Assembly: GCA_017521005.1 (NCBI GenBank)
Contig: JAFXEC010000052.1
Span: 1-61,913, forward strand
Length of the DNA: 61,913 nucleotides
Source of the DNA: Clostridia bacterium
GTDB lineage: Bacteria; Bacillota; Clostridia; TANB77; CAG-465
Direction of reading: 5' to 3'
Within the stretch, counting starts at the first letter, position 1. Each line of letters opens with the position of its first letter. Position numbers and translations under genes: made by a program. The notes beneath the pieces were generated by a model. It worked only from the letters and a program-made list of their open reading frames with translations. It searched no databases and was not told the DNA's origin. Of the stretch, positions 3,460-60,069 are shown in pieces.

Positions 3460-3467
3460 GTGGCTAT

Positions 3468-25261: not shown

Positions 25262-26497
25262 ATGAAAAAGAGACAAGGTATATCATTAATAGTGTTGGTT
25301 ATAACAATAATTGTTATGATAATACTAGCATCTGCGGTAGTAGTAACACTTAGTAATGCTAATATTATAGATAGAGCAGGTGATGCAGTAGATAAAACTA
25401 ATATAAAACAAGTAGAGCAAATAGCTTCGATTGCGTGGTCGGAAGCGTTTTTGGAAAAATATAGAGGAGCAGATTTAAGAGATAAGGTTTATGAAACACT
25501 AAGAGAAGGCGGTGTAAATCCTTATGATTATAATATTACAGTTACAGATAAAGGTGTAACGGTAATAGATAAGGAAAAAGCAGGAACATTACTTGTAGGA
25601 CCATGGGAACTAAAAATTACTAAAACTTCAGGAAAGGTTACTAAAGCTGTTGTAACAAACGGCGTGGTAGAACTAAATGTAGGTGCTACTATAGATTATA
25701 TGCCTGGCGGAGTTGGAGATACAAATTATGTTGCTGGGTGGAAGATTTTAGGCGCTGATTCAAGTGGTAGATTACTTATATTGTCGAATGAAGGTGTTAC
25801 AGCGGAAAAAGTTGAACTATATATAAGAGATGGTTGGGTAAATGCTGAGACAATTCTTGATGGAGCGGCAGCAACTTATGCAGATGGCGTTATGGGTATT
25901 AATTCTAGAAGTATAAAAGTAGAAGATATAGATGCTTTAACTGGATATGATAAAACAACATTTAATGTTGGATTAATAAATGAATACAATACAACTGTAA
26001 CGATAGAATGGGATGGATCAGACTATCCTAAATATACAAATGGTAGCGTAACTGGTAATTTCAGTCGTTCGCATAAAGATAGCGGCTTTAGATATTATGA
26101 TATGGCAACCTCTTCATGGAAGACATCATATTTTACAACAACACCTACTGAAATAACTAAAATAACAAACGATTATTATGGTTATGTTGGAGCGGATTAT
26201 ATGGATACAACATTGCCTGCGTATAATATGATATTCCAAAGCAGGTCAGCGCCGTATAATACGGTTGAAACATATTGGCTAAATTCTAAGTTTATAAATG
26301 TATGTACAGATCATGTTAGATTTGGTATTAGAAGTTTAAGAAATGGTGAAGTTTTTGATGATGATGTGTATATTTCATGGCACTATGGGAACTCACCAGA
26401 TTATGAAGTAAGAGCAGTAGTTACACTAGCGGATAATGTAATATTAAGTGAAAGCCAAAAGAATCCGGGAACATATAATATATATGTCAATAATTAA
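25262..26497 (+). CDS. Pilin-like-handle protein A (unknown beta-rich C-terminal domain)
   Basis: N terminus MKKRQG-ISLIVLVITIIVMIILASAVVVTLSN, shared with ORFs at 29029, 30980 and 42803. RBS AAGGAGG. Confidence 0.7.
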   Translation: MKKRQGISLIVLVITIIVMIILASAVVVTLSNANIIDRAGDAVDKTNIKQVEQIASIAWSEAFLEKYRGADLRDKVYETLREGGVNPYDYNITVTDKGVTVIDKEKAGTLLVGPWELKITKTSGKVTKAVVTNGVVELNVGATIDYMPGGVGDTNYVAGWKILGADSSGRLLILSNEGVTAEKVELYIRDGWVNAETILDGAAATYADGVMGINSRSIKVEDIDALTGYDKTTFNVGLINEYNTTVTIEWDGSDYPKYTNGSVTGNFSRSHKDSGFRYYDMATSSWKTSYFTTTPTEITKITNDYYGYVGADYMDTTLPAYNMIFQSRSAPYNTVETYWLNSKFINVCTDHVRFGIRSLRNGEVFDDDVYISWHYGNSPDYEVRAVVTLADNVILSESQKNPGTYNIYVNN

Positions 26498-29028: not shown

Positions 29029-30861
29029 ATGAAAAATAACAAAAAAGGTATATCGTTAATAGTATTAGTAATTACAATAATAGTTATGATAATATTGGCA
29101 GCAAGTGTTGTAATAACGTTAAGTAATACTGGAATAATAGGAAAGGCATCGGAGGCAACAACGATGACAGATTTGAAATCGTTACAACAAGAAGCAGATG
29201 TTGTAAAAGCGTTAGAGTTAGGAAATATATACACTGGCTCTGATAGAAATTTAAGATTAACTAAAGCACTGTTACTAGAAAGACTACATCAACATTTTAA
29301 AGGCAGTACTAAAAATGGAGATAGAATAATAACAGCAGATGGAAAATATGTAATTATAGTTGGAGATGACTTATCTATAACCATAGGTGTTAATGAACCA
29401 GGCAAGAAAAACGAGTTAACACTAGCTATAACATATAATTCGCCAGTTACATCTATACCATATAAAGTATATGTTACACCAACACTTGAGGGATGGAAAA
29501 GAGAAGATGCAGCAACAGGTGAAACATATTCAAGTTATGAAGAATATGCAGAAGCGATTTTAGCAACTGTAAAATCCGAATCAGAACTTGAACAATTATT
29601 TGTAGAAGGAAACAATTATTGGAATGCGGAGTATGGTGGTATGGAACCAATGTATCAAAACATAAATCAATTGGTTGCAACATGGAGTTTAATCTATGAT
29701 AGTGGCGCTTATACTACTTTGGATGGTATGATTGAACATTATGGTTTTGAAAGCTTGGGAGATTTAGCTTTGTCTTTAGAGTTGATTAAACCAGAAGGGT
29801 ATTACGGAAAAGGTTATATAGAATTTGCTGAAAATGAATTAAAAAATACTACAAAAACATATGAAGAAATATATATGGAAGGTCGTATATATTTAGCAGA
29901 GACAGAAGAATGGGGTAATTTAACAGACCTTAAGAACGCTAGTACTTTTGCAGAGTTTGTAGAAAGTGACATGGGAATTCCAAACATAAATAATATGGAT
30001 CAACTTCTTGCAGACTATAAGGCGGCTTATCAAGCAAATTATATGACAAAAGAGAATTTATTAATAGTAATGAAAGCGGTTGAACCTAAAAAGTATAGTG
30101 ATATATCAGAATTGCAAGATGGAGAAGTTTTAGTCAAAGGTCCAAGTGGAAAAACTGTAATAGCTATGTCTGGAGAAACGGTTGAAATTACTATGATAAG
30201 TGTAAACGAAACTACATTTGAAGCGGTTGCGTTTAACGGAAAAACAACTAAAAAGACATTTAACCCTGAATCAAATATTGCACCACAAAATTATACAGCG
30301 CTAGATACAAAATTCTTTGAGTTTGAATATGATTCAACAACAATGACAGCGACATTAAAGAAGATAAAAGATTCATATCAAGAAGTTGGATATTACGAGC
30401 ATATTAGCTTGCCAGCACCATATACATATCCTAAATCTATAATAGATGATAATGGAACAAAAATTACAGATATAATAATACCGTCAAAAGTGGTAAATCC
30501 AGCAGATAATAAAGAATATACTATAACAGCAATAGCAAGCTACGCATTTTCAGTGCCATCTAACGTAACAGGAAGCACACAACCAAGCTTTACAAGTTTA
30601 ATATTACCTGAAACAATAACAACAATAGGAGATTATGCATTCTTCTGTTGGAATAAAGCTACTAAATTGGTATTACCAAAGAGTTTAACTACAGTAGGAT
30701 ATCAAACATTTAGTTATTGGAATGAATTAGACGTAATAAGTTATTCAGGAACACAAGCACAATATTCGAATATATTATTTGAGCCTCAATGGTCACTTGA
30801 AGGAAAAGAATTTGAACAAAAATTAGTAATATGCGATACTATATATTCAATAGCAGATTAG
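29029..30861 (+). CDS. Pilin-like-handle protein B with C-terminal BspA-type leucine-rich repeats
   Basis: N terminus MKNNKKG-ISLIVLVITIIVMIILAASVVITLSNTGII. C terminus has ITAIASYAF, ITTIGDYAFFC and LTTVGYQTF repeats. Confidence 0.75.
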   Translation: MKNNKKGISLIVLVITIIVMIILAASVVITLSNTGIIGKASEATTMTDLKSLQQEADVVKALELGNIYTGSDRNLRLTKALLLERLHQHFKGSTKNGDRIITADGKYVIIVGDDLSITIGVNEPGKKNELTLAITYNSPVTSIPYKVYVTPTLEGWKREDAATGETYSSYEEYAEAILATVKSESELEQLFVEGNNYWNAEYGGMEPMYQNINQLVATWSLIYDSGAYTTLDGMIEHYGFESLGDLALSLELIKPEGYYGKGYIEFAENELKNTTKTYEEIYMEGRIYLAETEEWGNLTDLKNASTFAEFVESDMGIPNINNMDQLLADYKAAYQANYMTKENLLIVMKAVEPKKYSDISELQDGEVLVKGPSGKTVIAMSGETVEITMISVNETTFEAVAFNGKTTKKTFNPESNIAPQNYTALDTKFFEFEYDSTTMTATLKKIKDSYQEVGYYEHISLPAPYTYPKSIIDDNGTKITDIIIPSKVVNPADNKEYTITAIASYAFSVPSNVTGSTQPSFTSLILPETITTIGDYAFFCWNKATKLVLPKSLTTVGYQTFSYWNELDVISYSGTQAQYSNILFEPQWSLEGKEFEQKLVICDTIYSIAD

Positions 30862-30979: not shown

Positions 30980-31912
30980 ATGAAAAGAAAACAAGGTATA
31001 TCGCTAATAGTACTAGTAATAACAATTATAGTAATGATAATATTAGCAGCTTCAGTAGTGATTACTTTAAGTAATACAGGAATAATAAATAAAGCAAATG
31101 AAGCAACAGACACAACTAATTTACAACAAGTACAACAATTAGCTACTTTAACATGGTCTGATGGATTTTTGGATAATTTAAGAGGAGACGACTTAAGAGA
31201 CTATGTATTAGGTGAAATGGGAGATTATACAAATGATTATGATATAGATGTATCAGACAAAGGTGTAGAAGTAAATAAAAAAGGTGAAGGACCAATCGAA
31301 CCATTTGACTATTATACATATGATTATGATACGACAAATATGACGGCAGCATTAAAAGGTGTGCAAGAGAAGTATGCGGTAACAGGATACTATAATTATA
31401 GAACAGATAAATATCCTTATACAACAGCAATAAAGGATGATGAAGGAAATACTGTAACAAGAGTTGCAATTCCATCAACAGTAACTGGACCTGATGGTGA
31501 GACATATACAGTAACTTCAATAAAAGCGGGAGCGTTTTCATCTAGTACAGCAGGTTCGCTAAACCCAGCGCTTGATGATCAATCACAATTTACAGAAATA
31601 GTATTACCGGATACATTGGTAACAATTGACAATAATGCATTTGCCTTATGTGTAAATATAAAAGAAATAGTAATACCAGAAGGTGTTACAAATATAAATT
31701 ATGGTGCGTTTATGGTATGTAAATCATTAAAGAAGATAGTATTGCCGAAAACATTTACAACACTTGGTCTGTGGGTATTTGGATATGCAGACAATTTAAC
31801 AGATGTATATTATGCTGGTACAGAAACAGAATGGTCAAATCTATCATTAGATGAAATGGGTAATGAGCCCCTTACAAATGCAACTATGCATTATAACTAT
31901 GTAGCAGAATAA
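30980..31912 (+). CDS. Pilin-like-handle protein C with C-terminal BspA-type leucine-rich repeats
   Basis: N terminus MKRKQG-ISLIVLVITIIVMIILAASVVITLSNTGII. C terminus has VTSIKAGAF, LVTIDNNAFALC and VTNINYGAFMVC repeats. Confidence 0.75.
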   Translation: MKRKQGISLIVLVITIIVMIILAASVVITLSNTGIINKANEATDTTNLQQVQQLATLTWSDGFLDNLRGDDLRDYVLGEMGDYTNDYDIDVSDKGVEVNKKGEGPIEPFDYYTYDYDTTNMTAALKGVQEKYAVTGYYNYRTDKYPYTTAIKDDEGNTVTRVAIPSTVTGPDGETYTVTSIKAGAFSSSTAGSLNPALDDQSQFTEIVLPDTLVTIDNNAFALCVNIKEIVIPEGVTNINYGAFMVCKSLKKIVLPKTFTTLGLWVFGYADNLTDVYYAGTETEWSNLSLDEMGNEPLTNATMHYNYVAE

Positions 31913-42802: not shown

Positions 42803-44233
42803 ATGGTAAAAAACAAAAAAGGTATATCATTAATAGTATTAGTAATAACAATAATAGTTATGATAATTTTAGCAGCCGCGGTTGTTGTTACATTAAACAA
42901 CAGCGGAATAATAGGTAGAGCAAGCGAGGCGGTAGATGATACGGAATTAAATGATGTTAGACATTTAGCAACTTTAGCGTGGTCTGAAGCATATTTGGAA
43001 GGTCTAGATTTAGAGGATGCTGTATTTGAAGCGCTAGAAAATAATAATGTTAATACGGATAAATACGATATAATCGTTACAGATAAAGGGGTAACTGTAA
43101 ACAAGAAAGATGAGAACGCCGAGAAAGGAACTGTTCCACCAGCAGATTGGCAAGATAGTGTAAGAATTGTAACTGAAGAGGGTGTTCCTATTCCAAAAGG
43201 TTTTGCACGCTCTCCATACGCAACTGAAGATCAAGTGGCAGAAGGAATGGTTATATATGCTTTAACAGAAGATGAAATAAAAGCTGGTAAGAAGACAATT
43301 ACTACTGATGCTAGCCATCAATATTCTTTAGAGAATAGAAATCAATTTGTATGGGTACCAGTAGATAGAGATGCTTTTGTAACAGAATTTGTGAGAAAGA
43401 ATTTTGCTGGTACTAATGTAAATATTTCTAATGAATTAGGCAAGGGATATTGGGAAATAGTGCTAGACGAAAATAATATGCCTGCAGCCCAAAACATGCA
43501 AAATAGCGCGTATATATCAGATATGGTGTATGAAGAAATAACTGCGATGTATGAAAGTGTTAAAAAATATGGAGGTTTCTATATAGGTCGTTATGAGGCA
43601 GGAACAGACACATATGATGAAGTTACATTTTTGTCTAATGGAAGTGCAAAAGTTGCAATGGGTAAATATCCTATAACTAATATAGATTGGGGTAATGGCA
43701 CTATGGCAGATGATAATGGTGGTGCTGTAGCAAAATCTAGAGAGTTATATCCAAAGAGTAATTCATTATATGGAGCAGTTTCTACTTTAACATATGGTGT
43801 GCAATGGGATGCTGCAATATCTAGTTGGGTAAAATTAGAACCAACATTTGATTTCTTTGATCCAAGTAAAGGTATATGGTGGGATACTATTATAACAGCG
43901 TCAGATTTTAATACTAACGCAAAGCAATCAAGAATAGACACAGATGAATGGGCACTAAGAGTTTGGACAGCTGCTGAACCAAGAGTAGCAGATGATGATC
44001 CACAATTATTTAGTACTGGTGCATGTAAAAATTCTATTAATTATAACGTTTATGATATGGGAGGTAATTTGTTTGAATGGACAATGGAAGGAACTTCAAC
44101 ATATCAACGTTCTGTAAGAGGTAGTTATTGGTGGCATTACGTAATGTATGGTGGGGTAAATGATAGAGACGGTGAATCAATGGGACCAGACCCAGTATAT
44201 TTAGGATTTAGACCATCGTTATATATTAAGTAA
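42803..44233 (+). CDS. Pilin-like-handle protein D with C-terminal FGE-sulfatase (SUMF1/DUF323, C-type-lectin fold) domain
   Basis: ATG at 42803 after AAGGAG. N terminus MVKNKKG-ISLIVLVITIIVMIILAAAVVVTLNNSGII. C terminus has YGVQWDAA, YDMGGNLFEWTMEG, RSVRGSYWW and LGFRPSLY. Confidence 0.7.
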   Translation: MVKNKKGISLIVLVITIIVMIILAAAVVVTLNNSGIIGRASEAVDDTELNDVRHLATLAWSEAYLEGLDLEDAVFEALENNNVNTDKYDIIVTDKGVTVNKKDENAEKGTVPPADWQDSVRIVTEEGVPIPKGFARSPYATEDQVAEGMVIYALTEDEIKAGKKTITTDASHQYSLENRNQFVWVPVDRDAFVTEFVRKNFAGTNVNISNELGKGYWEIVLDENNMPAAQNMQNSAYISDMVYEEITAMYESVKKYGGFYIGRYEAGTDTYDEVTFLSNGSAKVAMGKYPITNIDWGNGTMADDNGGAVAKSRELYPKSNSLYGAVSTLTYGVQWDAAISSWVKLEPTFDFFDPSKGIWWDTIITASDFNTNAKQSRIDTDEWALRVWTAAEPRVADDDPQLFSTGACKNSINYNVYDMGGNLFEWTMEGTSTYQRSVRGSYWWHYVMYGGVNDRDGESMGPDPVYLGFRPSLYIK

Positions 44234-46891: not shown

Positions 46892-48682
46892 ATGTCTGAA
46901 TTAATTACAGGACAAAAAAGAAGTGCAAGATGCACAGAGTTTACTGAAGCCGATGTTGGAAGAGATGTAACAGTTATGGGCTGGGTAGACACAAGAAGAG
47001 ATATGGGTAAAATAATATTCGTTGACCTTCGTGACAGAAGTGGAATAATTCAAGTTGTAATAGACGACAGAGTGTCAGCTGAAGATTTCGAAAAAGCAAG
47101 CCATATTAAAAACGAATACGTTATATCAGTAGAAGGTGTGGTTAATAAAAGAGAAGATTCAAAAGTTAACCCAAAATTAAAAACAGGAACAATAGAAGTT
47201 ATTGCTAAGTCTGTTAGAATACTTTAAGAATGTGATACTCTACCATTCCAAATTGAAGAAGCGGATCAAGTAGGAGATCAAACAAGACTTAAATATAGAT
47301 ATCTAGATTTAAGAAGTAAATCAATGCAAAGAAACTTAAAATTAAAAAGTGATATTTGTCACATTACAAGAAACTTCTTCCATGATGAAGGCTTTATTGA
47401 AGTTGAAACTCCAATGTTAAATAAATCTACACCAGAAGGAGCTCGTGACTACTTAGTACCAAGTAGAGTAAATCCAGGAATGTTTTATGCATTACCTCAA
47501 TCTCCACAATTATTTAAACAAATATTAATGTTATCTGGATATGATAGATATATCCAAATAGCTAGATGTTTTAGAGATGAGGACTTAAGAGCAGATAGAC
47601 AACCAGAATTTACACAAATAGATATGGAATTATCTTTTGTAGACGAAGATGATGTAATCGATGTAAACGAAAGATACTTAAAGAAAATATTTAAAGAAAT
47701 TAAAGGTATAGATATTGAAACTCCATTCATGAGAATGACTTATGATGAAGCTATGAGAAGATTTGGTTCAGATAAACCAGACTTAAGATTTGGCATGGAA
47801 CTTACAGATATGTCAGATATATTTGCTGGTTGTGAATTTAAAGTGTTTGCAGATACTATAGCTAAAGGTGGAAGCGTTAGAACAATAACAGTTCCAGGAG
47901 CAGCAAACTATACTAGAAAACAAATCGATGAGTTAATAGATTTCGTTAAAATATATAAAGCGAAAGGTCTTGCATCGTTTGCTATTGAAAATGGAGAATA
48001 CAAATCTAACATATTAAGATTTATGTCTGAAGATATAATAGCAAAAGTTGTTGAAAGAGCAAACGCTAAAGAAGGCGACCTTGTATTATTCGTAGCAGAT
48101 ACTAACGAAGTTGTATTTGCAGCATTAGGCGCATTAAGATGCGAAATGGCTAAGAGATTAAACTTAATAAATAAAGATGAATACAAATTCTTATGGGTAG
48201 TAGACTTCCCTATGTTTGAATGGGATGAAGAAAATAACAGATGTAAAGCTGTTCACCATCCATTCACATCACCTAAAGATGAAGATTTAGCATTCATGGA
48301 AGAAAGACCATTAGACGTTAAAGCTAAAGCTTACGATATCGTATTAAACGGTACAGAACTTGGTGGAGGAAGTATCAGAATACACTCTAGAGAAGTTCAA
48401 AGAAGAGTATTTAATCTACTTGGATTTACAGATGAACAAGCTCAAGCTAGATTTGGTTTCTTATTAGACGCATTCAAATATGGTGTACCACCTCATGGTG
48501 GATTAGCATATGGTCTAGACAGACTTGTAATGTTAGTACTAGGACTTGATACAATAAGAGATACAATAGCATTCCCTAAAGATAAGAGTGCAAGTTGTCA
48601 AATGTCTGAAGCACCAAATGTTGTTGATGAAAAACAACTTGATGAACTTCATATTAAATTAAACTTACCAGAAGAACAATAA
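46892..48682 (+). pseudogene. aspS: Aspartate--tRNA ligase reading frame interrupted by a single in-frame TAA at 47225..47227
   Basis: ORFs 46892..47227 (OB anticodon-binding domain) and 47324..48682 (class II core: FRDEDLRADRQPEFTQID, GGGSIRIH, GLDRLVM) are in the same frame. 47228..47323 is open and encodes the conserved RLKYRYLDLR. Confidence 0.85.
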
Positions 48683-48716: not shown

Positions 48717-49679
48717 ATGAAAATAGCAATATTAGGAGCTGGAGCATTAGCAATTGGATTTGCTAAGGTTTTAGAAGGAAGAGATTTTGACATAATAATG
48801 TGGACAAAATTTGAAGCGGAAAAAGATGAGATTCTAACAACTAGAGTAAATTCTAAGTTATTCCCAGGAATAAGACTTGCGGATGAAGTTAAAATAACAA
48901 CAGATATAGTTGAAGCTGTAAAAGGAGCGGACGTGATACTTAACGTCCTTCCGTTTATAGCAATTAGAGATACAATAGAATTAATAAAAGATTTCTATGA
49001 TGAGAAACAAATAATAATTAGTGCAACTAAAGGTATAGATGAAGAAAACTTTATAACTACAACTAAACTTTTTGAAGAGTATTTAGGAGCAACAAAGATT
49101 TCAGCATTGTCTGGTCCATCGTTTGCAATAGATGTTGCAAAACATACAGAAATTTCTCTTATGTTAGGTACAAAATCTAAAGAGGCAGAAGATATGACTC
49201 GTATGCTGCTTGAAACAGAAGCTATAAAAATGGAAACTACAGAAGATATTGATGGAATACAATTCTGTGGAGCAATAAAAAATGCTATAGCAGTTGGTTC
49301 GGGAATGTTAGCTGGATTAAATGTTGCAGATTCAACTAGAGCAGCATATCTAGCAACAGGAATGACAGATATGGCAAAAGCATTAGTTACTTTAGGCGGA
49401 AAGAAAGAAACAGCATATAGTTATGCTGGAGCAGGAGATCTTATGCTTACATGTATGAGCCCTACAAGCCGTAACTTTACATTTGGATATTATTTGGGTC
49501 AAGGATTAAATGTTGATGAGGCGTTTAAGATGATGAATAATAAAACAGTAGAAGGATACAAAGTAATACGTGCACTTAAGAAATATAGTGGTGAAATGGA
49601 TATACCTTTCTACACAATACCAGTATTATATGATATAGTATTTAATGGTAAGGATGTAAATAACATAAAGAAAGTATAA
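48717..49679 (+). CDS. gpsA: NAD(P)H-dependent glycerol-3-phosphate dehydrogenase
   Basis: N-terminal Rossmann ILGAGA and CGAIKNAIAVGSG motif; about 320 aa. Confidence 0.85.
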   Translation: MKIAILGAGALAIGFAKVLEGRDFDIIMWTKFEAEKDEILTTRVNSKLFPGIRLADEVKITTDIVEAVKGADVILNVLPFIAIRDTIELIKDFYDEKQIIISATKGIDEENFITTTKLFEEYLGATKISALSGPSFAIDVAKHTEISLMLGTKSKEAEDMTRMLLETEAIKMETTEDIDGIQFCGAIKNAIAVGSGMLAGLNVADSTRAAYLATGMTDMAKALVTLGGKKETAYSYAGAGDLMLTCMSPTSRNFTFGYYLGQGLNVDEAFKMMNNKTVEGYKVIRALKKYSGEMDIPFYTIPVLYDIVFNGKDVNNIKKV

Positions 49680-49708
49680 AATGTAAATTATAATATAATT
49701 AATTTATT

Positions 49709-49737
49709 AAAAGCGAGAACGTCTAGTTCTCGCTTTT
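49709..49737 (+). terminator. Rho-independent terminator after gpsA
   Basis: aaaagcgagaac-gtcta-gttctcgctttt. Confidence 0.8.
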
Positions 49738-49778
49738 AACCATTTATCTACAAAACTGATACACTTGTCGACATAAAA

Positions 49779-49807
49779 TTGAAAAAATGCTTGAAATATG
49801 CTATAAT
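49779..49807 (+). promoter_or_regulatory. Sigma-A-type promoter (TTGAAA, 17-nt spacer, TATAAT) for the ABC gene
   Basis: TTGAAA at 49779..49784 and TATAAT at 49802..49807. Confidence 0.55.
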
Positions 49808-49883
49808 AATAATGCAAGAATTTGGTTGACATGGGCGATAAATTGTCTATGTAAATAATAATTAGAAAAGGAGAAATAAAAGG

Positions 49884-51686
49884 ATGATAAAAAAACTCTT
49901 GCAAAAAATAGCAACACTCGTTAGCACGATGTTTAAACCTTTTGGGTTGAAACACAAAACGGTAGAGGTACCAACAAATCTTAAAAAGAGAGGTCGGAAT
50001 TTAGCGGTTATAGAATTTAGTATAACATTTTTAGGCTTGGCGTTTTCGTTCTTGCTTAAAGCAACCAATATTATGATTGAAATGAAATTCATCATATTAG
50101 GTATTGTGTTCTTCATGTTATACTACGGCGAACAAGTCCTAAGGTCTAGTCTAGATCTTGTGATTGCTGCAGAAAGCAAAAAGTATCAATTTATGTTTGA
50201 TAACGAAATTATCTTAAGAGGAAGTAAAATTCTTTCTGAGGTAACGGATAAGGTGCATAAAAAGGATGAAAAGACTAATATGTACTCTATAATGTCAAAC
50301 GAATCGGTAATAAATGTTATAAAGCGTTATTTGTCTAATTTGTGGGAACTTAAAATAAACAACATCTTTAATATTCTGGGTATTATATCTGCGATATTAA
50401 TGCTTGTAGTTGCAGTTATCACAAACAACGCAATTAGCCAAAGTATCTTTATTCCCGTATTGATAGCATTTGCCATTACTGCATTCGCCACAACAGTATA
50501 TCTGTCTATGAGTCGCAAAACTTATCACGAAAAATTCAGAGAAAGTGTCGATGAAGAATATGAGATAAGTAACGACCTGTTAAGAGTAACGCCTATAGTA
50601 AAGAAAGATGTTCCTATGAGAATAGATCTTCTTAGCAAAACTATTAAAGCTAACAACAGTAACTTTATAACCTTTGATAAGAAAATACGAATCTCAAGAC
50701 TTATAATGTGTGCAGTGGAAACACTTGCAACATATGGAATAATTCTACTTTATGTTTTCGGTGTAAATTGGCAAAACATTACTGTTGCAACAATTGCAGA
50801 AATCACTGCTAATATCGTAATAGTAACAGCAGCATTAAGAAATATTACCAAAATCACTGATTCTTTAGATAGATTTAGTGAACGTGTTACTATTATAAAC
50901 CGTGAAGAAGTTGAAATGAAACTTATAACTGAAACTTATGATAGAGTGATAGCAAGACATAAGGAAGATAAACCTGTAACTAGAATATGTATACCAGAGT
51001 TTAAGATAAGCTATATCGAAGAGTCTGAAAACGATAAACCTTTTACCTTAAAAAGTGAAAGAGAGATAACGATTTCTACGGGAGATGTAGCAATACTTTA
51101 TGGTCCATCTGGCTCTGGCAAATCTACCTTTATGAAACTCATAACTGAAAGAATTGCGTTGAATAAGAGTGTGGATATCCCTTCAACATCTAGATTCTTA
51201 TATTATGATGAAAAACTTAAGTTTGGGTCGCTTAGCGTATATCAAGAATTGTTCTGTAACGACGAACAACCAAATCTTGCAAAAATGCAGGACATTCTTG
51301 AAAATCTTCATTTGTGGCAGGAAATTACTACAAACTGCGTCGATGTATGGCAATACCTCAAAGAGAAGAAGTATAATCATTTTTCAAACGGTCAGAAGCA
51401 AAGACTTATTATTGCAAAAATGCTTTACTGGATTGATGAAAATATAGATGTGCTTGTACTTGATGAGTGTACCTCAGGACTTGATGATGTTATAGGCGAG
51501 GTCGAAGGTGCAAACGCACAAGAGATACTCGAATATATAACAACATATAGCAATAAAGACAAAAAGCGCATAGTTGTAATTTCTACTCATCAGAACATTG
51601 ATGATTTCATTTCAAACATCGAAACGAATTTTAACATCCAAAAATTACAGTTTATTAGAAAAGGAGAATGTAATATAGTAAACTAA
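49884..51686 (+). CDS. ABC exporter half-transporter (6-TM domain fused to a nucleotide-binding domain), substrate unknown
   Basis: RBS AAGGAG. TM pairs separated by long cytoplasmic loops. Walker A GPSGSGKST, Q-loop VYQE, signature FSNGQKQR, Walker B VLVLDECTSGLD, H-loop ISTHQ. Confidence 0.8.
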   Translation: MIKKLLQKIATLVSTMFKPFGLKHKTVEVPTNLKKRGRNLAVIEFSITFLGLAFSFLLKATNIMIEMKFIILGIVFFMLYYGEQVLRSSLDLVIAAESKKYQFMFDNEIILRGSKILSEVTDKVHKKDEKTNMYSIMSNESVINVIKRYLSNLWELKINNIFNILGIISAILMLVVAVITNNAISQSIFIPVLIAFAITAFATTVYLSMSRKTYHEKFRESVDEEYEISNDLLRVTPIVKKDVPMRIDLLSKTIKANNSNFITFDKKIRISRLIMCAVETLATYGIILLYVFGVNWQNITVATIAEITANIVIVTAALRNITKITDSLDRFSERVTIINREEVEMKLITETYDRVIARHKEDKPVTRICIPEFKISYIEESENDKPFTLKSEREITISTGDVAILYGPSGSGKSTFMKLITERIALNKSVDIPSTSRFLYYDEKLKFGSLSVYQELFCNDEQPNLAKMQDILENLHLWQEITTNCVDVWQYLKEKKYNHFSNGQKQRLIIAKMLYWIDENIDVLVLDECTSGLDDVIGEVEGANAQEILEYITTYSNKDKKRIVVISTHQNIDDFISNIETNFNIQKLQFIRKGECNIVN

Positions 51687-51688
51687 GC

Positions 51689-51716
51689 AAAAAGGAGTGC
51701 AAATGCACTCCTTTTT
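51689..51716. terminator. Bidirectional terminator shared by convergent genes
   Basis: aaaaaggagtgc-aaat-gcactccttttt. Confidence 0.85.
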
Positions 51717-51717
51717 G

Positions 51718-52050
51718 TCAGTTAATACGGTGTTTTGATGTGTATTCTGTCGGAATATATCCTAAGTTGATGTATTTTTGGATAACCAGTTCGTAGTCTT
51801 CATTTGCGGTGTAACAGATAGATTTTAAAGGATAATCAGTAATTTTTATCCAACCGAGTAAAAGGACAGCTATATCGTCTAACGACGAAATACCTATTTG
51901 TTCAGCCCGCTTCATGAGTCTTGCCTTAGAAGTCTCGTCGAGTTTTTCCAAATAATTTTGGACAACTAAGATATGTTCCCTACAACCAGAGAATGACCGG
52001 CAGCTAAAGCCGTCTACCAAGTTTGGTAGTATCCATCCGCTAAGAATCAT
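51718..52050 (-). CDS. 110-aa hypothetical cytoplasmic protein, no recognisable family
   Basis: ORF 51718..52065; ATG at 52050 lies 6 nt after GGAGGTG. No TM helix or signal peptide. Contains CRSFSGCREH. Confidence 0.5.
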   Translation of the reverse strand: MILSGWILPNLVDGFSCRSFSGCREHILVVQNYLEKLDETSKARLMKRAEQIGISSLDDIAVLLLGWIKITDYPLKSICYTANEDYELVIQKYINLGYIPTEYTSKHRIN

Positions 52051-52221
52051 AAGGTACACCTCCAAAGTTTTGTTAGTATTAATATAGTTATACTAATATT
52101 AATATTAATATTTATCGACTGTATAAATTATACCATAGATTACATAAAAAGTGAAGTTTTTTTCTATATTTACAAGCGTTAATACTTATGATATTATTTT
52201 TTTACATTTAAAGAGGTAAAT

Positions 52222-53637
52222 ATGAAGAAAACAAATAGAAGATATTTTGTGTTAATATTAATAGCTATAATTATAAGTTTGGGTGTATTTTGTTATTATT
52301 ACTATACTAGTAAAGTGTATATAGATATAAACGGCGAGAAAATAGAATTAAACATTTTAGAAAATAAAGCAATAGATCTAGATACTTTTAATTCTAATGA
52401 TGATGTTATAATTACAAAATTAAACGGTGTTGGAAATGTAATTATAGATGGAAATATATTAAAAAACGGAGATAGTATAAATATAGGTAAAATAAAGATA
52501 GGAAGAGACAATAAAATTAGGTTAGTTGTTAAAAAAATGTTTAACAAATATAATTTTGAGATAAACACATTATCATCAACTTTCCCTAAATATTCTTCTT
52601 ACGGAGAAAGTAATTATGAAGGAGATTATTATTTAACAACTTTTTCGATGAACTATACAGGAAATCATTATATATTTAAGTTAAATAAGAAGGGTGAGAT
52701 TACTTATTATAAAAAAACTGATATGGTTTCTTTTGATTTTACAGCACATAAAAATAAAAAAGGTGAAATACGCTACATGTATCTAGAAGGAAAGAAACCA
52801 AATTTTGAAGGCGCTACAAGTATAGTTGGTTGTGAATTAGTAGTACTAGATGAAAAATATAAGGAAATAGATAGAATTAAATATTTGAATAAAGATGGAA
52901 CGTATTCACTATTAGATAATCATACATATATGTATATAGACGATGGACATTATATATTAACATCATATGTTTTAAGAAAAATAGAAGATAAAAATGTTGA
53001 CGTTTTAGATTGTTTAATACATGAAATAAAGGATGAAAAAGTTATATGGGAGTTTAATAGTGGAGATTATCCATACCTTTATGATTGTACTACAGTTGAA
53101 GGAAAAGATTATATACACATAAATTCTATTGATATAGATAAAGATGATGAAAATGTTATTTGTTCATTTAGAAACATCGATGCACTTATTAAGTTGAGCA
53201 GAAAAGACGGAAGAATAATATGGATGTTGGGTGGAAAGAATGATGAATTTAATTTATCAAATAAGAACAAATTTTCAAAACAGCATTCATGGATTTCCGC
53301 AGGAAACAATACATATTTTGTTTATGATAATGGAAATGAAAACAGAAGAACAAGAATTGTTAAATTTGTATTAGATGAAAAGAATAAAAAGGTTATAGAA
53401 TACAAGGAATATGATACAAATATTTATGCAGCAATGATGGGTTCTGTAAGAGTAATAGATTTAGTAAATCAAATTAATTTGATTTGCTACGGGGGGAAGA
53501 TAACTAAAACAAATACTAATTTTAGAAATATATATTTGCTAGAAGAAATAAATTTTGCAACTAACAAATTGGAATTTGGATTTACATTTTTGGATGGCCA
53601 TCAAATATATAATGCTAATAAAATAGATATTAACTAG
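52222..53637 (+). CDS. Membrane-anchored arylsulfotransferase (ASST)-family-like beta-propeller protein
   Basis: N-terminal TM anchor. HINSIDID, SFRNIDALIKLSRKDGRIIWMLGG and QHSW resemble ASST-family motifs. Confidence 0.5.
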   Translation: MKKTNRRYFVLILIAIIISLGVFCYYYYTSKVYIDINGEKIELNILENKAIDLDTFNSNDDVIITKLNGVGNVIIDGNILKNGDSINIGKIKIGRDNKIRLVVKKMFNKYNFEINTLSSTFPKYSSYGESNYEGDYYLTTFSMNYTGNHYIFKLNKKGEITYYKKTDMVSFDFTAHKNKKGEIRYMYLEGKKPNFEGATSIVGCELVVLDEKYKEIDRIKYLNKDGTYSLLDNHTYMYIDDGHYILTSYVLRKIEDKNVDVLDCLIHEIKDEKVIWEFNSGDYPYLYDCTTVEGKDYIHINSIDIDKDDENVICSFRNIDALIKLSRKDGRIIWMLGGKNDEFNLSNKNKFSKQHSWISAGNNTYFVYDNGNENRRTRIVKFVLDEKNKKVIEYKEYDTNIYAAMMGSVRVIDLVNQINLICYGGKITKTNTNFRNIYLLEEINFATNKLEFGFTFLDGHQIYNANKIDIN

Positions 53638-53696: not shown

Positions 53697-55502
53697 ATGT
53701 ACGACGTAAATAACATAAGAAACTTTAGTATAATTGCACATATTGATCACGGCAAATCTACAGTTGCAGATAAATTGCTTGAACTCACTGGAACAATAGA
53801 AAAAAGAGATTTAACAGCTCAAGTATTAGATAATATGGATATTGAACGCGAAAGAGGTATTACAATTAAATCTCAAGCTGTAAGAATGAAATATACTAAA
53901 AACGGACAAGAATATATATTAAATTTAATAGATACTCCAGGACATGTAGACTTTAACTATGAAGTATCGCGTTCTTTAGCAGCGTGTGAGGGCGCTATAC
54001 TTGTAGTAGATGCTTGTCAAGGTGTTGAAGCTCAAACATTAGCGAATGTATATTTAGCATTAGAAAATAATCTAGAAATTATACCAATAATAAATAAAAT
54101 TGACTTACCTCAAGCTAGACCAGATGAGGTAAAGAATGAAATAGAAAATATAATAGGGATTGAGGCTATGGAAGCTCCATGTGTATCTGCTAAGACGGGA
54201 ATTAATATGGAACAAGTATTAGATGAAATAGTGGAAAAAGTTCCAGCGCCTAAAGGAGATATAAACGCTCCTACTAAAGCATTAATATTTGATTCTAAAT
54301 ATGATAACTACAAAGGTGTTGTTGTTCATGTAAGAATGGTAGATGGTACTTTAAGACCAGGAGACAAAATAGTTGCAATGGCAAGTAAACGTGAATATGA
54401 AATAGTTGAAGTGGGATACTTTAAACCAGGCGATTATGAACCAGCAAATATACTTAATGCAGGTGAAGTTGGATACATTACAGCAAGTATTAAAGATATT
54501 TCAGATATTCGTGTTGGTGATACATTAACTATTAAATCTAATCCGGCATCAGAAGCGCTTCCGGGATACAAAGAAGTAAAATCTATGGTATACGCAGGTA
54601 TATTCCCTGCTGATGGAAGCGATTACGAAGAACTTAAAGAGGCATTACTAAAACTTAAATTAAATGATGCATCGTTAAACTTCGAACTTGAATCTTCAGC
54701 AGCGTTAGGACATGGATTTAGATGCGGCTTCTTAGGACTTCTTCATATGGAAATAATTGAAGAAAGAATAGAAAGAGAATATGGAATAAGTATAATTACA
54801 ACTGCGCCATCGGTTATATATAAAATACACAAAACTAATGGCGAAGAACTAGAATTATATAATCCAGCAGATTTACCTTCTGCACAAGAAATAGATTATA
54901 TGGAAGAGCCAGTAGCTAAAGCAGAAATTATAGTGCCTAAAGAATATGTAGGTAATGTAATGGAACTTTGTACTGAGAGAAGAAGTGATTATATTAATAT
55001 GAAATATATAGATGATAACAGAGTGTGCTTAGAATACAACATGCCACTAAACGAAATTATCTATGATTTCTTTAATAGCTTAAAATCTAGAACAAGAGGA
55101 TATGCTTCTTTTGATTATGAAATATCTCATTACCAAAGAGCACATCTAGTAAAATTAGATATATTATTAAATGGAGATGTAGTAGATGCATTATCTTTCA
55201 TAGTACATAGAGCTAAAGCAGAAACCAGAGGTAGAAAGATTGCAGAAAAACTTAAAGAGGTTATTCCAAGGCAATTATTCGAAATACCAATACAAGCAGC
55301 TATAGGTGGAAAAGTAGTAGCTCGTGAAACAGTAAGAGCTATGAGAAAAGACGTATTAGCTAAATGTTATGGTGGAGATATATCTAGAAAGAAAAAACTT
55401 CTTGAAAAACAAAAAGAGGGAAAGAAAAGAATGCGTCAAGTTGGTAGCGTAGAACTTCCATCAGAAGCGTTTATGACAGTGCTAAAAGTCGATGATAATT
55501 AA
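53697..55502 (+). CDS. lepA: Elongation factor 4
   Basis: [21 protein letters not shown] GTPase motifs and the LepA-specific C-terminal domain; 601 aa. Confidence 0.97.
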
Positions 55503-55626: not shown

Positions 55627-58600
55627 ATGAAGAAACATGCAAAGATATTCCTTGCCGTTTTGATGGTGTTTGTAGTTTCAATAACTACATTACGTTATAA
55701 CGGTAAAGAGATAGAAACATCTAGTTTAATAAACATAAATGAGTGCTCAAACGAATTTATGGAAAAGTATTTTACTGAAATGAGTAAAATAAGTGAAGAA
55801 GATAAACCAAATATTCTTATCGTTACTAGTAAAACTAAAATAGTAAGTACATATGGTGCAAAAAATGTAATAGCAGCACCAAATAATCAATATATGCTAG
55901 TATACGATTCTAAAGAGGCTAAAGATGAAGCTAAAGAAAAACTAACTAAAGTTAGAGGATTAGTCTCTGTAGAAGAGAATATTGAGTATAAAATATCTGC
56001 ATATAACTCTTGGGGAGTAACATCTACAGGAATGGACCAAGCGTCAGCTAGACTAGAAGCACGTGCTGGTAAGGATGATATAGTTGTAGCAATAATAGAT
56101 ACAGGACTTGATGTTGCTTTATTTAAAAGCAAATATCCTACAAAATTAGCAGGAACATATAATTCATTAACAAACAGTACAGCAGAATCTGCGATGTCAG
56201 ATGAAAATAGTCACGGGACACATATAGCAGGAACAATAGCTGAAAGTACACCATCTAATGTTAAGATACTTCCAGCAAAGGCATCTTCAGGTTCATCTTT
56301 GTTATCAACAGATATAATAAGAGCAATAAATTATATCGTAAATAATAAAGCTGCAGATGTAATTAATATGAGCTATGGTTCGTATACAACACACACAGCA
56401 ACACATGTAGCAATAAAAGCGGCAACAGAAGCAGGAATAATATGTGTAGCGGCTGCAGGTAATGAAGAATTAGCACAAAAAGCATATCCAGCAGGTTATC
56501 CAGAAACAATAGCAGTATCTGCAATAGATTCGATGAATTCAATAGCTAGTTTCTCTAACGTTGGAACAAATATAGATTTTGCAGCACCAGGTGTAAACAT
56601 TAATAGTATAAATGGATATAAGAGTGGTACTTCAATGGCGGCACCACACGTTGCTGCTGCGGTAGCGATTGTTAAAAGCTATAATGAAGACTTTACTAAA
56701 GAACAAGTTGTGGATATATTAAAAGCCAACGCAGTAGATTTAGGAACACCAGGTTGGGATTATGTCTTTGGATATGGAGCAATAAACTTTATTGGATTTA
56801 ATTATTGTACATGTAATTGTGCAACATGTGATAGTGTAGCATGTACTGGATGTTCTTGCGTAACATGCGTGCACAAAGATATAACTGAAAACATAACAAG
56901 TATATCTGTTTCTAAAATAGTACAAGAAACATATAACTATGGAAGTATTTCAAACTTAGCAAACATGGAACTAAAACTATATTATAGTTCTGGTAACTTA
57001 ACTAAAAAGTTAGGAGATTTAGAGAATGTAACAGTAACAGGATACGATCCATACAAATATACAAGTCAGGTAATAACTATAACTTTTGCAGGAAAGTCTA
57101 CACAAGTAACATTGCCAGCAAGAACAGAACCACAATCTTTTTGGTCATATGAAGTAGTAAGTGGAACTAATATTAAACTTTCTGGAATGAAAACTACACC
57201 AGTTAAATGGTTACATTTACCTGAAAAAATAGGTAGCTATACAGTAACAGCAATTAAGAGTGGTTTGTTTAAGGAAAAAGACCTAACAATAGTAACTATG
57301 CCAAGCACAATAACAAGTATAGAATCCGAAGCTTTTGCAGGCTCTACAGTAAGAGAAATAAAAGCGGGAGCTAGTACGTTAACACTTGGAAGTAAAGCTT
57401 TTTCTAAAGCAACTAATTTAGAAAAAATTAATTCATTTGTTAAATTAACAGGCGAAGATGTGTTTGAAGAATGTTATTCGCTAACATATGTAAAATTATC
57501 AACTGAAAACATATCAATACCAGGTGGAACATTTTATTTATGTACTAATTTAGAGAGTATAACAATACCAACAGCTGTAACAACCATTGGAGATTATGCT
57601 TTCACAAACACAAGAATAAATAATTTAACAATACCAAACAATGTAACAAGTATAGGTAAAGCAGCATTTGCAAATTCATTTAATTTAGAAACATTAAATT
57701 TATCTACAATATTAAAAACAATAGGTGAAAGTGGATTTGCATCAGCAGCAAACTTAAAATCATTAAGCATACCAGCAACTGTAACAAGTATAGGTACGGA
57801 TGCATTTAGAACTTGTACAGGATTAAATACAATTACTGTAGCAAGTGAAAATACATATTATGATAGTAGAGAAAATTGTAATGCATTAATAGACAGTACA
57901 ACTGATACATTAATTATAGGAACAAATAATACAACTTCTGTGCCGGGTACAGTAAAAACAATAGGTGATATGGCATTTGCGTTTAATCATTTATTATATG
58001 AAATAAGAATTGGTGAAGGGGTTAAAACAATAAAATCAAATGCTTTCTATAACACATATTATTTACAAGTAGCAATATTACCAGAAACTTTAACTACAAT
58101 TGAAACAGGAGCATTTAATTATACTCCATATTTAACACTTTGGGTACATAGTGATTCATATGGAAAAACATATGCAACATCTAATAGTAGAGCATATAGA
58201 TGTTATAATCCAAGCAATTTATCTGTAACAGGAATAAAAACAACATATACTGCTTTTGAAAAGGTATCAACAACAGGTGTATATTTAACAGCAAAATATT
58301 CAGATTATGATGGTACAAGAACAGAAACTATATCAAGCGGTATAACAATAGGATATACTGGCGGCAATACAAGTTTAAGAGCAACTGATACATATATAAC
58401 AATAAGCGCATATAATAGTGTTGGTTATCATATAATAGGAAGAGTAAATATAACAGTTAATAAAGCAACACCATCTTATGTAGTTCCAACAGGACTTTCT
58501 GGAGTGGAAGGACAAAAGCTATCTGAAATAGTATTACCTACTGGATTTAGTTGGCAAACACCAAACACGATATTATCTGGCGTAGGTAACAAGACATACA

Positions 58601-60069
58601 AAGTTAATTACACACCAACAGATACTGTAAACTACAATACAGTAACAGGTATAGACGTAACTATTACAGTAGTTGCAGGAAAGACTATAATAACACCAAC
58701 AATAACAATAACAGATAAAACTTATGATGGTAAATTAAGTATAGATGTAGCGACTATTAAAGTTGCAGAACTTAAATCAACTGAATATGTAGTAACGTTA
58801 GCAACTCTGTCTTCAGCAAATGTTGGTACAGTTAACGCAACAATTAAAATCAAATTAACAAACGATAAATTCAAAACAACCGCATTTACTGGAAATGCAC
58901 AAGAATATCAAACTACAGTTAGTATGAAAATAGTTCATGCAAAAGTTGCATATCCTACACGTGTAAATAAAGAATATGTATATAACGGCAAAGAGCAAAC
59001 TTTTGAAGTAACAGGTTTAGATACTAGTATAATGAGTATAACAGGAAACAAGAGAACAAATGCTGGTAGCCAATCGGTTATAATAAAGCTTACAAATTCT
59101 AACTATACATGGACAGATGGAACAAAGAATAATTTGTCCTTTACATTTGAAATAAAGAAAGCAAGTATTGTATATACAGCAGAAGATGGACACTATGTTG
59201 TAGATGGACAAGGCTATGGAATTACATTAAATGTAACAAGCCCTACAACGGCTACAATAAAGTATGCTGATGCATCTGGAAATTATACATTAAGTACAAT
59301 GCCAAAATATACAGCAGCTGGAACATATACAATTAAATTTAAGATATCTGCAGGTGATAATTATAATGAAGTAACAGATGAACGTAAGTTATACATTTAT
59401 GCAGAAGGAATAATAAACAAAACAAAAGATAAAGAAGTAATATATGATGGTTTAGAGCATACATTAACAATGGATATAAACATTGGAGATGTAACAATTA
59501 AATATTCTGTGGGCAATACAAAATATGATTTAGATAAATTACCAATGTTTAAGAATGTTGGAGAATATGTAGTAAATTACAAGATAGAGAAAACTGGGTT
59601 ACAAACAATTTATGGAAGTAATAAGGTTAAAATTTATGGAGTAAAAACAACAGGTTCTTCGTTAAGAATAGATGGCAATTATCTCAAAATTAAAGATTTC
59701 AAAACAAACTATGCAGATATTATAAGTAAACTAAATATTTATGCACCAAGCCATACAATTCTTGCACACGATAAAAATGGCGTAGATAAGAATACTAGTA
59801 CAATGTTTACTGGCGATTATATATCTATCTATATACACAGTGCGCTAAATTCTAAGGAGTTCAAATATACAGTGGTGATATTAGGGGATGCAAATCTAGA
59901 TGGTAAAATATCTGCTCTAGATTATGTAAGAATAAAGAATCACATAATGAAAGACCCTGAGATAAAAGATTCGTTATCTTTATTATCGGCAGATGCTAAT
60001 GATGACGGAAAAGTATCAGCGCTAGACTATGTAAGAATAAAGAATCATATAATGGACGGAGGAAAATAA
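55627..60069 (+). CDS. Giant secreted multidomain protein: subtilisin S8 peptidase, Cys cluster, BspA-type LRRs, Ig/MBG-like repeats, type I dockerin
   Basis: Signal/TM start. Catalytic motifs IIDTGLD, HGTHIAG, GTSMAAPHVAAA. CTCNCATCDSVACTGCSCVTC at 56806..56872. LRR units such as VTTIGDYAF. KTYDG and YNGKEQ modules. Duplicated DANxDGK(I/V)SALDYVRIKNHIM from about 59884. Confidence 0.85.
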   Translation: MKKHAKIFLAVLMVFVVSITTLRYNGKEIETSSLININECSNEFMEKYFTEMSKISEEDKPNILIVTSKTKIVSTYGAKNVIAAPNNQYMLVYDSKEAKDEAKEKLTKVRGLVSVEENIEYKISAYNSWGVTSTGMDQASARLEARAGKDDIVVAIIDTGLDVALFKSKYPTKLAGTYNSLTNSTAESAMSDENSHGTHIAGTIAESTPSNVKILPAKASSGSSLLSTDIIRAINYIVNNKAADVINMSYGSYTTHTATHVAIKAATEAGIICVAAAGNEELAQKAYPAGYPETIAVSAIDSMNSIASFSNVGTNIDFAAPGVNINSINGYKSGTSMAAPHVAAAVAIVKSYNEDFTKEQVVDILKANAVDLGTPGWDYVFGYGAINFIGFNYCTCNCATCDSVACTGCSCVTCVHKDITENITSISVSKIVQETYNYGSISNLANMELKLYYSSGNLTKKLGDLENVTVTGYDPYKYTSQVITITFAGKSTQVTLPARTEPQSFWSYEVVSGTNIKLSGMKTTPVKWLHLPEKIGSYTVTAIKSGLFKEKDLTIVTMPSTITSIESEAFAGSTVREIKAGASTLTLGSKAFSKATNLEKINSFVKLTGEDVFEECYSLTYVKLSTENISIPGGTFYLCTNLESITIPTAVTTIGDYAFTNTRINNLTIPNNVTSIGKAAFANSFNLETLNLSTILKTIGESGFASAANLKSLSIPATVTSIGTDAFRTCTGLNTITVASENTYYDSRENCNALIDSTTDTLIIGTNNTTSVPGTVKTIGDMAFAFNHLLYEIRIGEGVKTIKSNAFYNTYYLQVAILPETLTTIETGAFNYTPYLTLWVHSDSYGKTYATSNSRAYRCYNPSNLSVTGIKTTYTAFEKVSTTGVYLTAKYSDYDGTRTETISSGITIGYTGGNTSLRATDTYITISAYNSVGYHIIGRVNITVNKATPSYVVPTGLSGVEGQKLSEIVLPTGFSWQTPNTILSGVGNKTYKVNYTPTDTVNYNTVTGIDVTITVVAGKTIITPTITITDKTYDGKLSIDVATIKVAELKSTEYVVTLATLSSANVGTVNATIKIKLTNDKFKTTAFTGNAQEYQTTVSMKIVHAKVAYPTRVNKEYVYNGKEQTFEVTGLDTSIMSITGNKRTNAGSQSVIIKLTNSNYTWTDGTKNNLSFTFEIKKASIVYTAEDGHYVVDGQGYGITLNVTSPTTATIKYADASGNYTLSTMPKYTAAGTYTIKFKISAGDNYNEVTDERKLYIYAEGIINKTKDKEVIYDGLEHTLTMDINIGDVTIKYSVGNTKYDLDKLPMFKNVGEYVVNYKIEKTGLQTIYGSNKVKIYGVKTTGSSLRIDGNYLKIKDFKTNYADIISKLNIYAPSHTILAHDKNGVDKNTSTMFTGDYISIYIHSALNSKEFKYTVVILGDANLDGKISALDYVRIKNHIMKDPEIKDSLSLLSADANDDGKVSALDYVRIKNHIMDGGK

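Follow-up and report, generated by a model that had tools for sequence, protein, structure and literature searches.

The ABC transporter gene and the convergent 110-aa gene between gpsA and lepA of a gut Clostridia bacterium are probably independent neighbours in a variable slot

Two convergent genes lie between gpsA and lepA on contig JAFXEC010000052.1 of a Clostridia bacterium (assembly GCA_017521005.1), of which a stretch of 61,913 nucleotides was analyzed and is referred to here as the window. One gene encodes a 600-aa ATP-binding cassette (ABC) half-transporter, the other a 110-aa protein, and a single hairpin separates them. A first-pass annotation of the DNA letters had read positions 49738-52221 as a compositionally distinct two-gene cassette, acquired horizontally, for example for resistance or efflux, for peptide export with immunity, or as a two-component conflict system. 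Do the two genes belong together, and did they arrive together? Our results indicate that they are probably two independent neighbours in a variable gpsA-lepA slot, the 110-aa gene (hereafter the small gene) being an old resident and the ABC gene a single-gene exporter insert.

In order to compare gene orders, homologues were found and their contigs fetched, and all of these loci (designated by L-numbers) were then searched by tblastn and with profiles. The window, which has an overall GC content of 30%, carries the order aspS, gpsA (+), the 600-aa ABC gene (+), the 110-aa open reading frame (ORF; -), a 471-aa arylsulfotransferase-like (ASST) gene (+), and lepA (+). Its nearest species representative is a metagenome-assembled Clostridia genome from sheep rectum (GpsA 99.7-100% identical), and the public runs that also hold the stretch are gut metagenomes. 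Members of the genus are those with GpsA 92-99.7% and LepA 98-99.7% identical to the window, while the outgroups share 90-92% identity in LepA, 92-93% in AspS, 58-62% in GpsA and 39-44% in the small protein. We found the small gene in the slot in every relative, namely in L001, L007, L008, L011, L014 and L015 as well as in the outgroups L017, L018 and L019. The ABC gene together with its own promoter block occurs in five other relatives' loci (L001, L007, L008, L013, and L014). It was found in the gpsA-lepA slot neither of the congeners L011 and L015, which read gpsA-small-lepA, nor of the outgroups L017 and L018/L019, in which the small gene is convergent with gpsA and divergent from lepA. 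Where both genes are present, the order is aspS-gpsA-ABC-small-lepA in L007, gpsA-ABC-small-[LRR_5, Wzy_C, LRR_5]-lepA in L001, gpsA-[LRR_5]-ABC-small-lepA in L008, and gpsA-[insert]-ABC-small-[ASST...] in L014. Since the small gene occupies the slot with or without the ABC gene, including in the outgroups, it appears to be the ancestral resident of the gpsA/lepA slot, and the ABC gene reads as a genus-level accessory gene, a later insert that only some congeners carry there. Synteny in the relatives, which the first-pass annotation had itself named as a test, thus contradicts a two-gene cassette.

The boundaries of the ABC gene are in line with this history. About 145 bp upstream of its start codon move with the gene (90-97% identical in L001, L007, L008, L013 and L014), and this leader block is kept even when the ABC gene is parted from gpsA by an LRR_5 gene, as annotated in L008; match coordinates indicate an insert at the same place in L013 and L014. 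The first-pass annotation had described a perfect bidirectional terminator shared by the two convergent genes. The hairpin, with a stem of 13 bp, is indeed there, but its origin as part of a shared cassette did not hold: because a homologous hairpin follows the small gene in L015, which lacks the ABC gene, the terminator belongs by ancestry to the small gene, in front of which the ABC gene was inserted. A family-level clade of gut Clostridia has kept the small gene in its place beside gpsA and lepA. The ancestral arrangement, in which lepA is divergent from the small gene, is seen in L007, L011, L015, L017 and L018, and the small gene is divergent from lepA wherever there is no cargo. Other single-gene cargo also appears to gather in the slot. 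The ASST-like gene is one example: it is strain-variable, with contigs of two public runs (X16 and X18) joining position 52155 directly to 53686. Its first 63 codons are present at the contig end of L014, and no ASST match was obtained between the small gene and lepA in L001, L007, L008, L011 or L015.

If the two genes formed one module, they should be found together in other lineages. Outside the genus, ABC homologues of 601-607 aa with 51-53% identity are plentiful in human-gut assemblies, and they stand alone in four distinct neighbourhoods: between YqeY and genes for tRNA-Pro and tRNA-Arg, between PepF and a ferredoxin, between a U32 peptidase and a VCA0040-like gene, and beside a HipA_C-like gene. 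In none of these four contexts does the small gene accompany the ABC homologue. A small-ORF partner in the 452-bp gap that follows the ABC homologue in L002 was considered and excluded, as the gap is taken up by the two tRNA genes. In reverse, homologues of the small protein outside the genus are encoded in the gpsA/lepA slot, beside a PBP-like gene, or convergent with a cluster of HtrA protease, response regulator and histidine kinase genes, and an ABC gene is adjacent in 0/4 distinct contexts (the gpsA/lepA slot and three further ones). The neighbour of the small homologue in L009 (44% identical) was examined as a possible ABC gene; it is not one, and is PBP-like by motifs alone. The co-occurrence of the small protein with this ABC family, which the first-pass annotation had offered as a check of its proposal, is therefore not found beyond the genus.

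Several observations on these neighbourhoods are worth recording in their own right. In most human-gut contigs, genes for tRNA-Pro and tRNA-Arg come next after a 607-aa ABC homologue (L002, 5525-5761). In L006 (3975-5697), a phage-type integrase, a helix-turn-helix gene and a DpnII-like restriction-modification cluster follow the ABC homologue, and no tRNA was detected there; this cluster is probably an integrated element at a tRNA site. For the small gene, the loci L020 (6477-10475) and L026 (2812-6724) show the homologue convergent with the same cluster of HtrA protease, response regulator and histidine kinase genes plus unassigned genes. This cluster, found in two distant lineages, is the only recurring small-gene neighbourhood besides gpsA/lepA.

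The proposal that the ABC gene and the 110-aa gene constitute one horizontally acquired module, whether for efflux or peptide export with immunity or as a two-gene conflict system, draws on the side-by-side, convergent position of the genes around a single hairpin, on their outlying GC content at third codon positions (GC3), and on the small protein, whose evolution is quicker than that of its neighbours, a common trait of immunity proteins. The small protein's ratio of nonsynonymous to synonymous divergence (dN/dS, Nei-Gojobori estimates here and below) is 0.20. However, the ratio is similar (~0.18) when the window is compared with the ABC-less L011, so that constraint on the small gene is no different without the ABC gene. 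Moreover, the small gene is older than the ABC gene at the slot and persists without it in L011, L015, L017 and L018/L019, the two genes are not found together outside the genus, and Pfam, PADLOC and PHROG searches gave no significant match for the small protein. No precursor peptide, regulator or mobility gene was found among the genes examined. Neighbour conservation across lineages, the property expected of a two-gene conflict, toxin-antitoxin or defence module, is missing, with 0/4 shared contexts for each gene and two congeners that have the small gene only. As a defence system the pair was likewise rejected, since PADLOC returned generic ATPase-level matches only (mad3 at 59 bits, mad8 at 35 bits). 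Nothing supports a role in immunity, as a toxin-antitoxin pair, or in defence, and we consider a single acquired module highly improbable. What remains of the proposal of a horizontally acquired two-gene module is that the ABC gene is accessory and that both genes have atypical codons; synteny, co-occurrence and synonymous divergence speak against the two genes being one module.

The composition of the two genes had been the main argument for foreign origin. By eye, the first-pass annotation had judged the cassette to be richer in G/C than its neighbours, which measurement does not bear out: the GC content of 49738-52221 is 0.323 compared to 0.321 in the left flank, and 18.7% of same-size stretches in the window reach or exceed it. 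These values rule out a bulk-GC island, and the true bulk-GC outlier nearby is the ASST-like gene. The codons tell a different story. Relative to the 47 other ORFs in the window (mean GC3 0.169, standard deviation 0.025, range 0.11-0.238), GC3 is 0.296 in the ABC gene (+5.2 standard deviations) and 0.387 in the small gene (+8.9 standard deviations). Among the codons named as rare nearby, CTC, GTC and ACG are ~5-45 times commoner in the two genes than in flanking genes. CGC is elevated only in the ABC gene, TCG chiefly in the small gene, and for GGC we saw no enrichment over flanking genes, so that the claim of rare codons was right for most but not all of those named.

High GC3 is not confined to the window. 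Among genus orthologues, GC3 is 0.28-0.30 in 5/5 ABC genes and 0.33-0.39 in 7/7 small genes. Small-gene homologues at saturated divergence still have values of 0.25 (L017), 0.29 (L018), 0.37 (L020) and 0.26 (L009), and the most distant one, in L026, is barely elevated (0.233 versus a neighbour mean of 0.196). In very AT-rich hosts, GC3 of the ABC homologue is 0.31 compared to 0.11-0.18 in most neighbours in L002 (one uncharacterized gene there has 0.30), and 0.35 compared to 0.06-0.14 in L023; in L022 and L027, it is the same as the host's own (~0.23-0.25). Taken together, GC3 of the ABC relatives stays at 0.23-0.35 while their hosts span 0.10-0.25. Because high GC3 persists in homologues from other AT-rich hosts and also after divergence has saturated, it is no mark of recent transfer, and the pattern reads as a standing property of both gene families.

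Divergence at synonymous sites (dS) provides an independent clock. Relative to the window, dS is 0.33-0.67 for the ABC gene, 0.23-0.72 for gpsA and 0.30-0.56 for lepA. The divergence of the ABC gene is therefore as old as that of the species, and the gene is not a recent arrival. Its dN/dS of 0.06 indicates strong purifying selection, and on these sequence data it appears to be an old, functional accessory gene and no recent island. The ABC gene appears dispensable, because two congeners are without it at this locus.

Whether it was gained once and then lost, or gained repeatedly at the slot from congeners or from outside as a laterally mobile accessory gene, has to be weighed on these same data. 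Repeated gain would account for the difference in ABC presence between close relatives, for the discordance of the ABC and gpsA trees with L008 and L014 both having an LRR_5-ABC order, for a family GC3 of ~0.23-0.35 whatever the GC3 of the host, and for a family context that differs in every lineage. On the other hand, dS of the ABC orthologues equals that of core genes, the nearest ABC relatives outside the genus are only ~53% identical, and searches for flank homology, a tRNA, or copies on plasmids and phages were negative, as was the search for an integrase among the genes examined. For L011, loss is the more parsimonious explanation, since at gpsA this locus is nearest to the ABC-bearing window and L001. 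We thus judge repeated gain to be unlikely, though clearly less so than a joint module, and favour a single insertion followed by loss.

Direct signs of mobility were sought in several ways. There is no tRNA in the window, which excludes a tRNA/integrase attachment site at the locus, and a search for flank homology was negative. No integrase was found either among the ORFs beside the pair, the part of the window that was scanned with Pfam, or among the genes annotated in the relatives' loci. Phage or plasmid carriage was rejected as well: tblastn against phages and plasmids and a search of IMG/VR viral contigs revealed no copies, as the ABC gene gave only generic nucleotide-binding-domain matches and the small protein nothing. 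Measured against what marks a recent island, GC3 is atypical but lasting at saturated divergence, dS equals that of the core, and both a tRNA and flank homology are lacking. The locus is similar to small genomic islets at a conserved hotspot in that its flanks, gpsA and lepA, are fixed while the cargo varies (ABC, ASST-like, LRR_5, Wzy_C). In contrast to such hotspots, no integrase, tRNA or flank homology was found here, the cargo comes as individual genes that each bring a promoter, and one "cargo" gene, the small gene, is a fixed resident.

We also asked what the ABC protein might do. It matches PF00005 with 46.8 bits (cut-off 25), which places it in the ABC ATPase superfamily. Walker A (GPSGSGKST), the Q-loop (YQE), the signature (FSNGQ), Walker B (LVLDE), the D-loop (SGLD) and the H-loop (STHQ) are present and align to Sav1866, and these ATPase motifs, including DECTSGLD, are invariant in 11 family members. 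The first-pass reading of all ATPase motifs, with LDECTSGLD at Walker B, was thus borne out. Hydropathy gives six peaks in a 2+2+2 pattern (residues 40-58, 63-81, 161-179, 187-205, 273-291 and 299-317). The membrane-domain model of exporters, PF00664 (ABC_membrane), had no match at E<=0.01, so that the profile for type IV exporters does not recognize the protein. The closest solved relative is Sav1866 (phmmer E 1.6e-8, residues 114-535 to 90-510 of Sav1866). A family profile finds ABCB-type exporters in the PDB at ~1e-9, and its alignments that span the membrane domain of Sav1866 and TM287/288 are weak (E 2e-8 to 2e-7).

With Sav1866 and other ABCB (type IV) exporters (PDB 2HYD, TM287/288, BmrA, MsbA), the protein shares a single polypeptide with six N-terminal helices and a C-terminal nucleotide-binding domain, and all of the motifs listed above, including Walker B with the catalytic Glu. 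It differs from them in being very divergent, with PF00664 silent and no NCBIfam model near its cut-off, and in having YxEESENDKPFTL before Walker A, FSNGQ/LSNGQ for LSGGQ, and DECTSGLD for DE(A/P)TSALD. NCBIfam matches of ~35-48 bits lie far under the cut-offs and do not discriminate among CydDC, MsbA, bacteriocin exporters and ECF ATPases. The top profiles are those of the CydDC thiol-reductant exporter (TIGR02857/TIGR02868), with a CydC alignment over residues 165-570. Unlike CydDC, the ABC protein scores 47-48 bits against cut-offs of 329-435, it is encoded by a lone gene and not by two genes for a heterodimer, and cydAB is not part of its surroundings. The protein thus reads as a member of an unnamed divergent exporter family, widespread in human and animal gut metagenomes, and most likely as a homodimeric type-IV-like exporter that is predicted to be competent for ATP hydrolysis.

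A more specific function has also been considered: the protein might be dedicated to exporting a peptide or bacteriocin, or serve as a pump for self-protection, with the genes for its precursor or partner at another place in the genome. Hints of this come from weak profile matches (~40-45 bits) to ABC families for bacteriocins, NHLP and lantibiotics, and from weak matches to peptidase-containing ABC transporters (PCATs) on plasmids. These scores are no better than those for CydDC, MsbA, ECF and many other ABC families, all far under cut-offs. A Pfam scan found no C39 peptidase domain, and neither a small precursor ORF nor a modification gene was found in the window or in any related locus, so that the protein is not of the PCAT/SunT type. 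No conserved partner gene for the ABC gene is present in any context seen. In agreement with the first-pass annotation, no regulator, peptide precursor or modification enzyme accompanies the pair in the window or in related loci. We therefore regard a dedicated peptide exporter as improbable.

The small protein belongs to a family of ~17 clusters at 50% identity, as determined by an exhaustive profile search of 1.84 billion representatives; a metagenome scan for further loci returned one 1-kb contig that added nothing. As already surmised from the sequence, it has no recognizable family: Pfam, NCBIfam and PADLOC offer none, and the best PHROG match is insignificant (E 0.14). The profile and structure searches that had been recommended for this protein were carried out and gave no significant PDB or BFVD match. 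The best PDB profile hit has an E value of 0.27, and with the predicted fold, Foldseek retrieved nothing at E<0.001 (best E 0.37 in PDB and 0.02 in BFVD, TM<=0.38). A resemblance to nuclease folds (AvaII, VRR-NUC; TM<=0.3) was taken as noise. The prediction itself is confident: AlphaFold2 with a 22-sequence alignment gave a predicted local distance difference test (pLDDT) of 90.1, a predicted template modelling score of 0.83 and the topology b-b-a-a-a-b-b-a-b, compared to a pLDDT of only 57 with a nine-sequence alignment. There is no clear transmembrane segment (the hydropathy peak of 1.55 is borderline). Conserved are an N-terminal MIxSGWILP(D/N), then C..S......H (C17, S19, H26), LDDFAV..LGWIK, and Y93.

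The control region of the small gene is conserved as well. A promoter scan located TTCACT-17-TATAAT at 52127-52155 (10/12 matches), which in the seven-genome alignment contains an invariant TGGTATAAT, an extended -10 element. The leader on the minus strand (~52072-52110) carries a conserved AT-rich inverted repeat, TATTAATAT...ATATTAATA, in which one position co-varies (A-T to G-C in L014 and L015, to G-T in L007). This repeat could be an operator or an RNA hairpin. The small protein could be a new housekeeping or regulatory factor; it might, for example, be a Cys/His/Asp/Lys enzyme or be autoregulated via the leader repeat. As a tentative and still doubtful proposal, the small protein would represent a lineage-restricted family with a fold absent from the PDB and, separately, the ABC protein an unnamed, deeply branching gut exporter family with unique motifs.

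According to the reading that we favour, two independent neighbours in one slot, the small gene would form a monocistronic unit that has an extended -10 promoter and a terminator to itself. It points towards gpsA and, in the ancestral arrangement, away from lepA, and would have descended vertically within the family-level clade of gut Clostridia. It encodes a protein, soluble and alpha/beta by prediction, that evolves fast under purifying selection. The ABC gene with its ~145 bp of promoter and leader would have been inserted between gpsA and the small-gene terminator at or before the root of the genus, and would since have been inherited vertically with some recombination among congeners, although at least two lineages would most likely have lost it from the slot. 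Two copies of the ABC protein would assemble into a homodimeric Sav1866/ABCB-like type IV exporter, in which two canonical sites would bind and hydrolyse ATP, thereby powering the alternating access that moves a substrate out of the cytoplasm or the inner leaflet. The ASST-like gene, the LRR_5 surface proteins and the Wzy_C protein would have entered the slot independently, in different species.

Some points count against this reading. Absence of the ABC gene from L011, L015 and the outgroups concerns the gpsA-lepA slot only. The ABC tree disagrees with the gpsA tree, with L008 and L014 sharing 94.2% identity at the ABC gene versus 87.3% at gpsA, which suggests recombination between congeners. 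The lasting high GC3 may perhaps reflect selection for codons that are rare, or else an exchange of genes that has gone on for long in a common pool. With PF00664 silent, the membrane-domain fold is assigned from topology and the weak Sav1866 alignment. A search of RNA runs, finally, yielded one run of uncertain type that resembles DNA of a related strain, and thereby no expression data.

The features of the locus are collected in Table 1. The gene calls, the promoter and the terminators of the first-pass annotation were recovered in place from the ORF list and the promoter and hairpin scans. The ABC promoter has 11/12 matches with a TG extension and is the top site of the region, while promoter-like sites overall are not in excess (13 versus 14.5 in shuffled sequence). 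Two statements on the right-hand side needed amendment. The pair is not adjacent to lepA, as the 471-aa ASST-like gene intervenes, and the AT-rich boundary (52066-52221) is indeed low in GC (0.173) but is more than a spacer, since it contains the promoter of the small gene.

Table 1. Features of the gpsA-lepA slot and its anchors, in window coordinates.
Feature	Position	Strand	Evidence
gpsA, NAD-dependent glycerol-3-phosphate dehydrogenase, left anchor of the slot	48717..49679	+	Pfam PF01210 and PF07479; syntenic in all relatives
Intrinsic terminator hairpin of gpsA	49707..49739	+	14-pair stem, then T-rich tail
Promoter/leader block moving with the ABC gene	49739..49883	+	TTGAAA-17-TATAAT at 49779-49807 and ribosome-binding site
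600-aa ABC half-transporter, N-terminal six-helix membrane domain (predicted) and C-terminal nucleotide-binding domain	49884..51686	+	PF00005, Sav1866 alignment, hydropathy
Terminator hairpin between the convergent genes	51688..51717	.	13-pair stem; homologous hairpin after the small gene in ABC-less L015
110-aa soluble protein, unnamed lineage-restricted family	51718..52050	-	ATG start, GGAGG ribosome-binding site; found in all relatives
Promoter and leader inverted repeat of the small gene	52072..52155	-	Promoter scan; seven-genome alignment
471-aa arylsulfotransferase-like (ASST) gene, GC 0.246, separate variable insert	52222..53637	+	PF05935, E 3e-15
lepA (EF4), right anchor	53697..55502	+	ORF list; 98-99.7% identical to the relatives' called LepA (PF06421 LepA_C)

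Further observations were made around the slot. In the window, aspS (46892-48682) is split by an in-frame TAA at 47225-47227, where relatives have TCA (Ser) within an intact 596-aa gene. Since the contigs of four public runs that hold the aspS stretch read C at 47226 (4/4), the stop probably stems from an error of assembly or consensus, or represents a rare variant, rather than marking a pseudogene. Four ORFs (25262-26497, 29029-30861, 30980-31912, and 42803-44233) have a near-identical prepilin-like N-terminus, K/R-x-GISLIVLVITIIVMIILA, which points to secreted proteins of one family, similar to type IV pilins or pseudopilins. Downstream of lepA (55627-60069), a 1480-aa S8 protease with LRR_5 repeats and a dockerin is encoded; it is 61-89% identical among congeners (L001, L007, L008, L011, and L015) compared to 98-99% for flanking core genes. 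LRR_5 surface-protein genes are the commonest variable cargo around the locus. In the outgroup L017, a ToxN-family toxin gene lies just downstream of lepA (3248-3748), which is another sign that the neighbourhood of lepA gathers accessory genes.

Overall, the value of these results is mainly corrective. Convergent neighbours, a common terminator and odd codons can mimic a mobile module, and synteny reveals two unrelated histories. The locus also shows cleanly that a gene family in an AT-rich genome can keep a raised GC3 as a stable trait, which is then no footprint of recent transfer. In addition, two uncharacterized families emerge, a divergent ABC exporter encoded by a single gene and abundant in gut Clostridia, and a small soluble protein whose fold is predicted with confidence and has no match in PDB or BFVD; both are modest targets for functional work.

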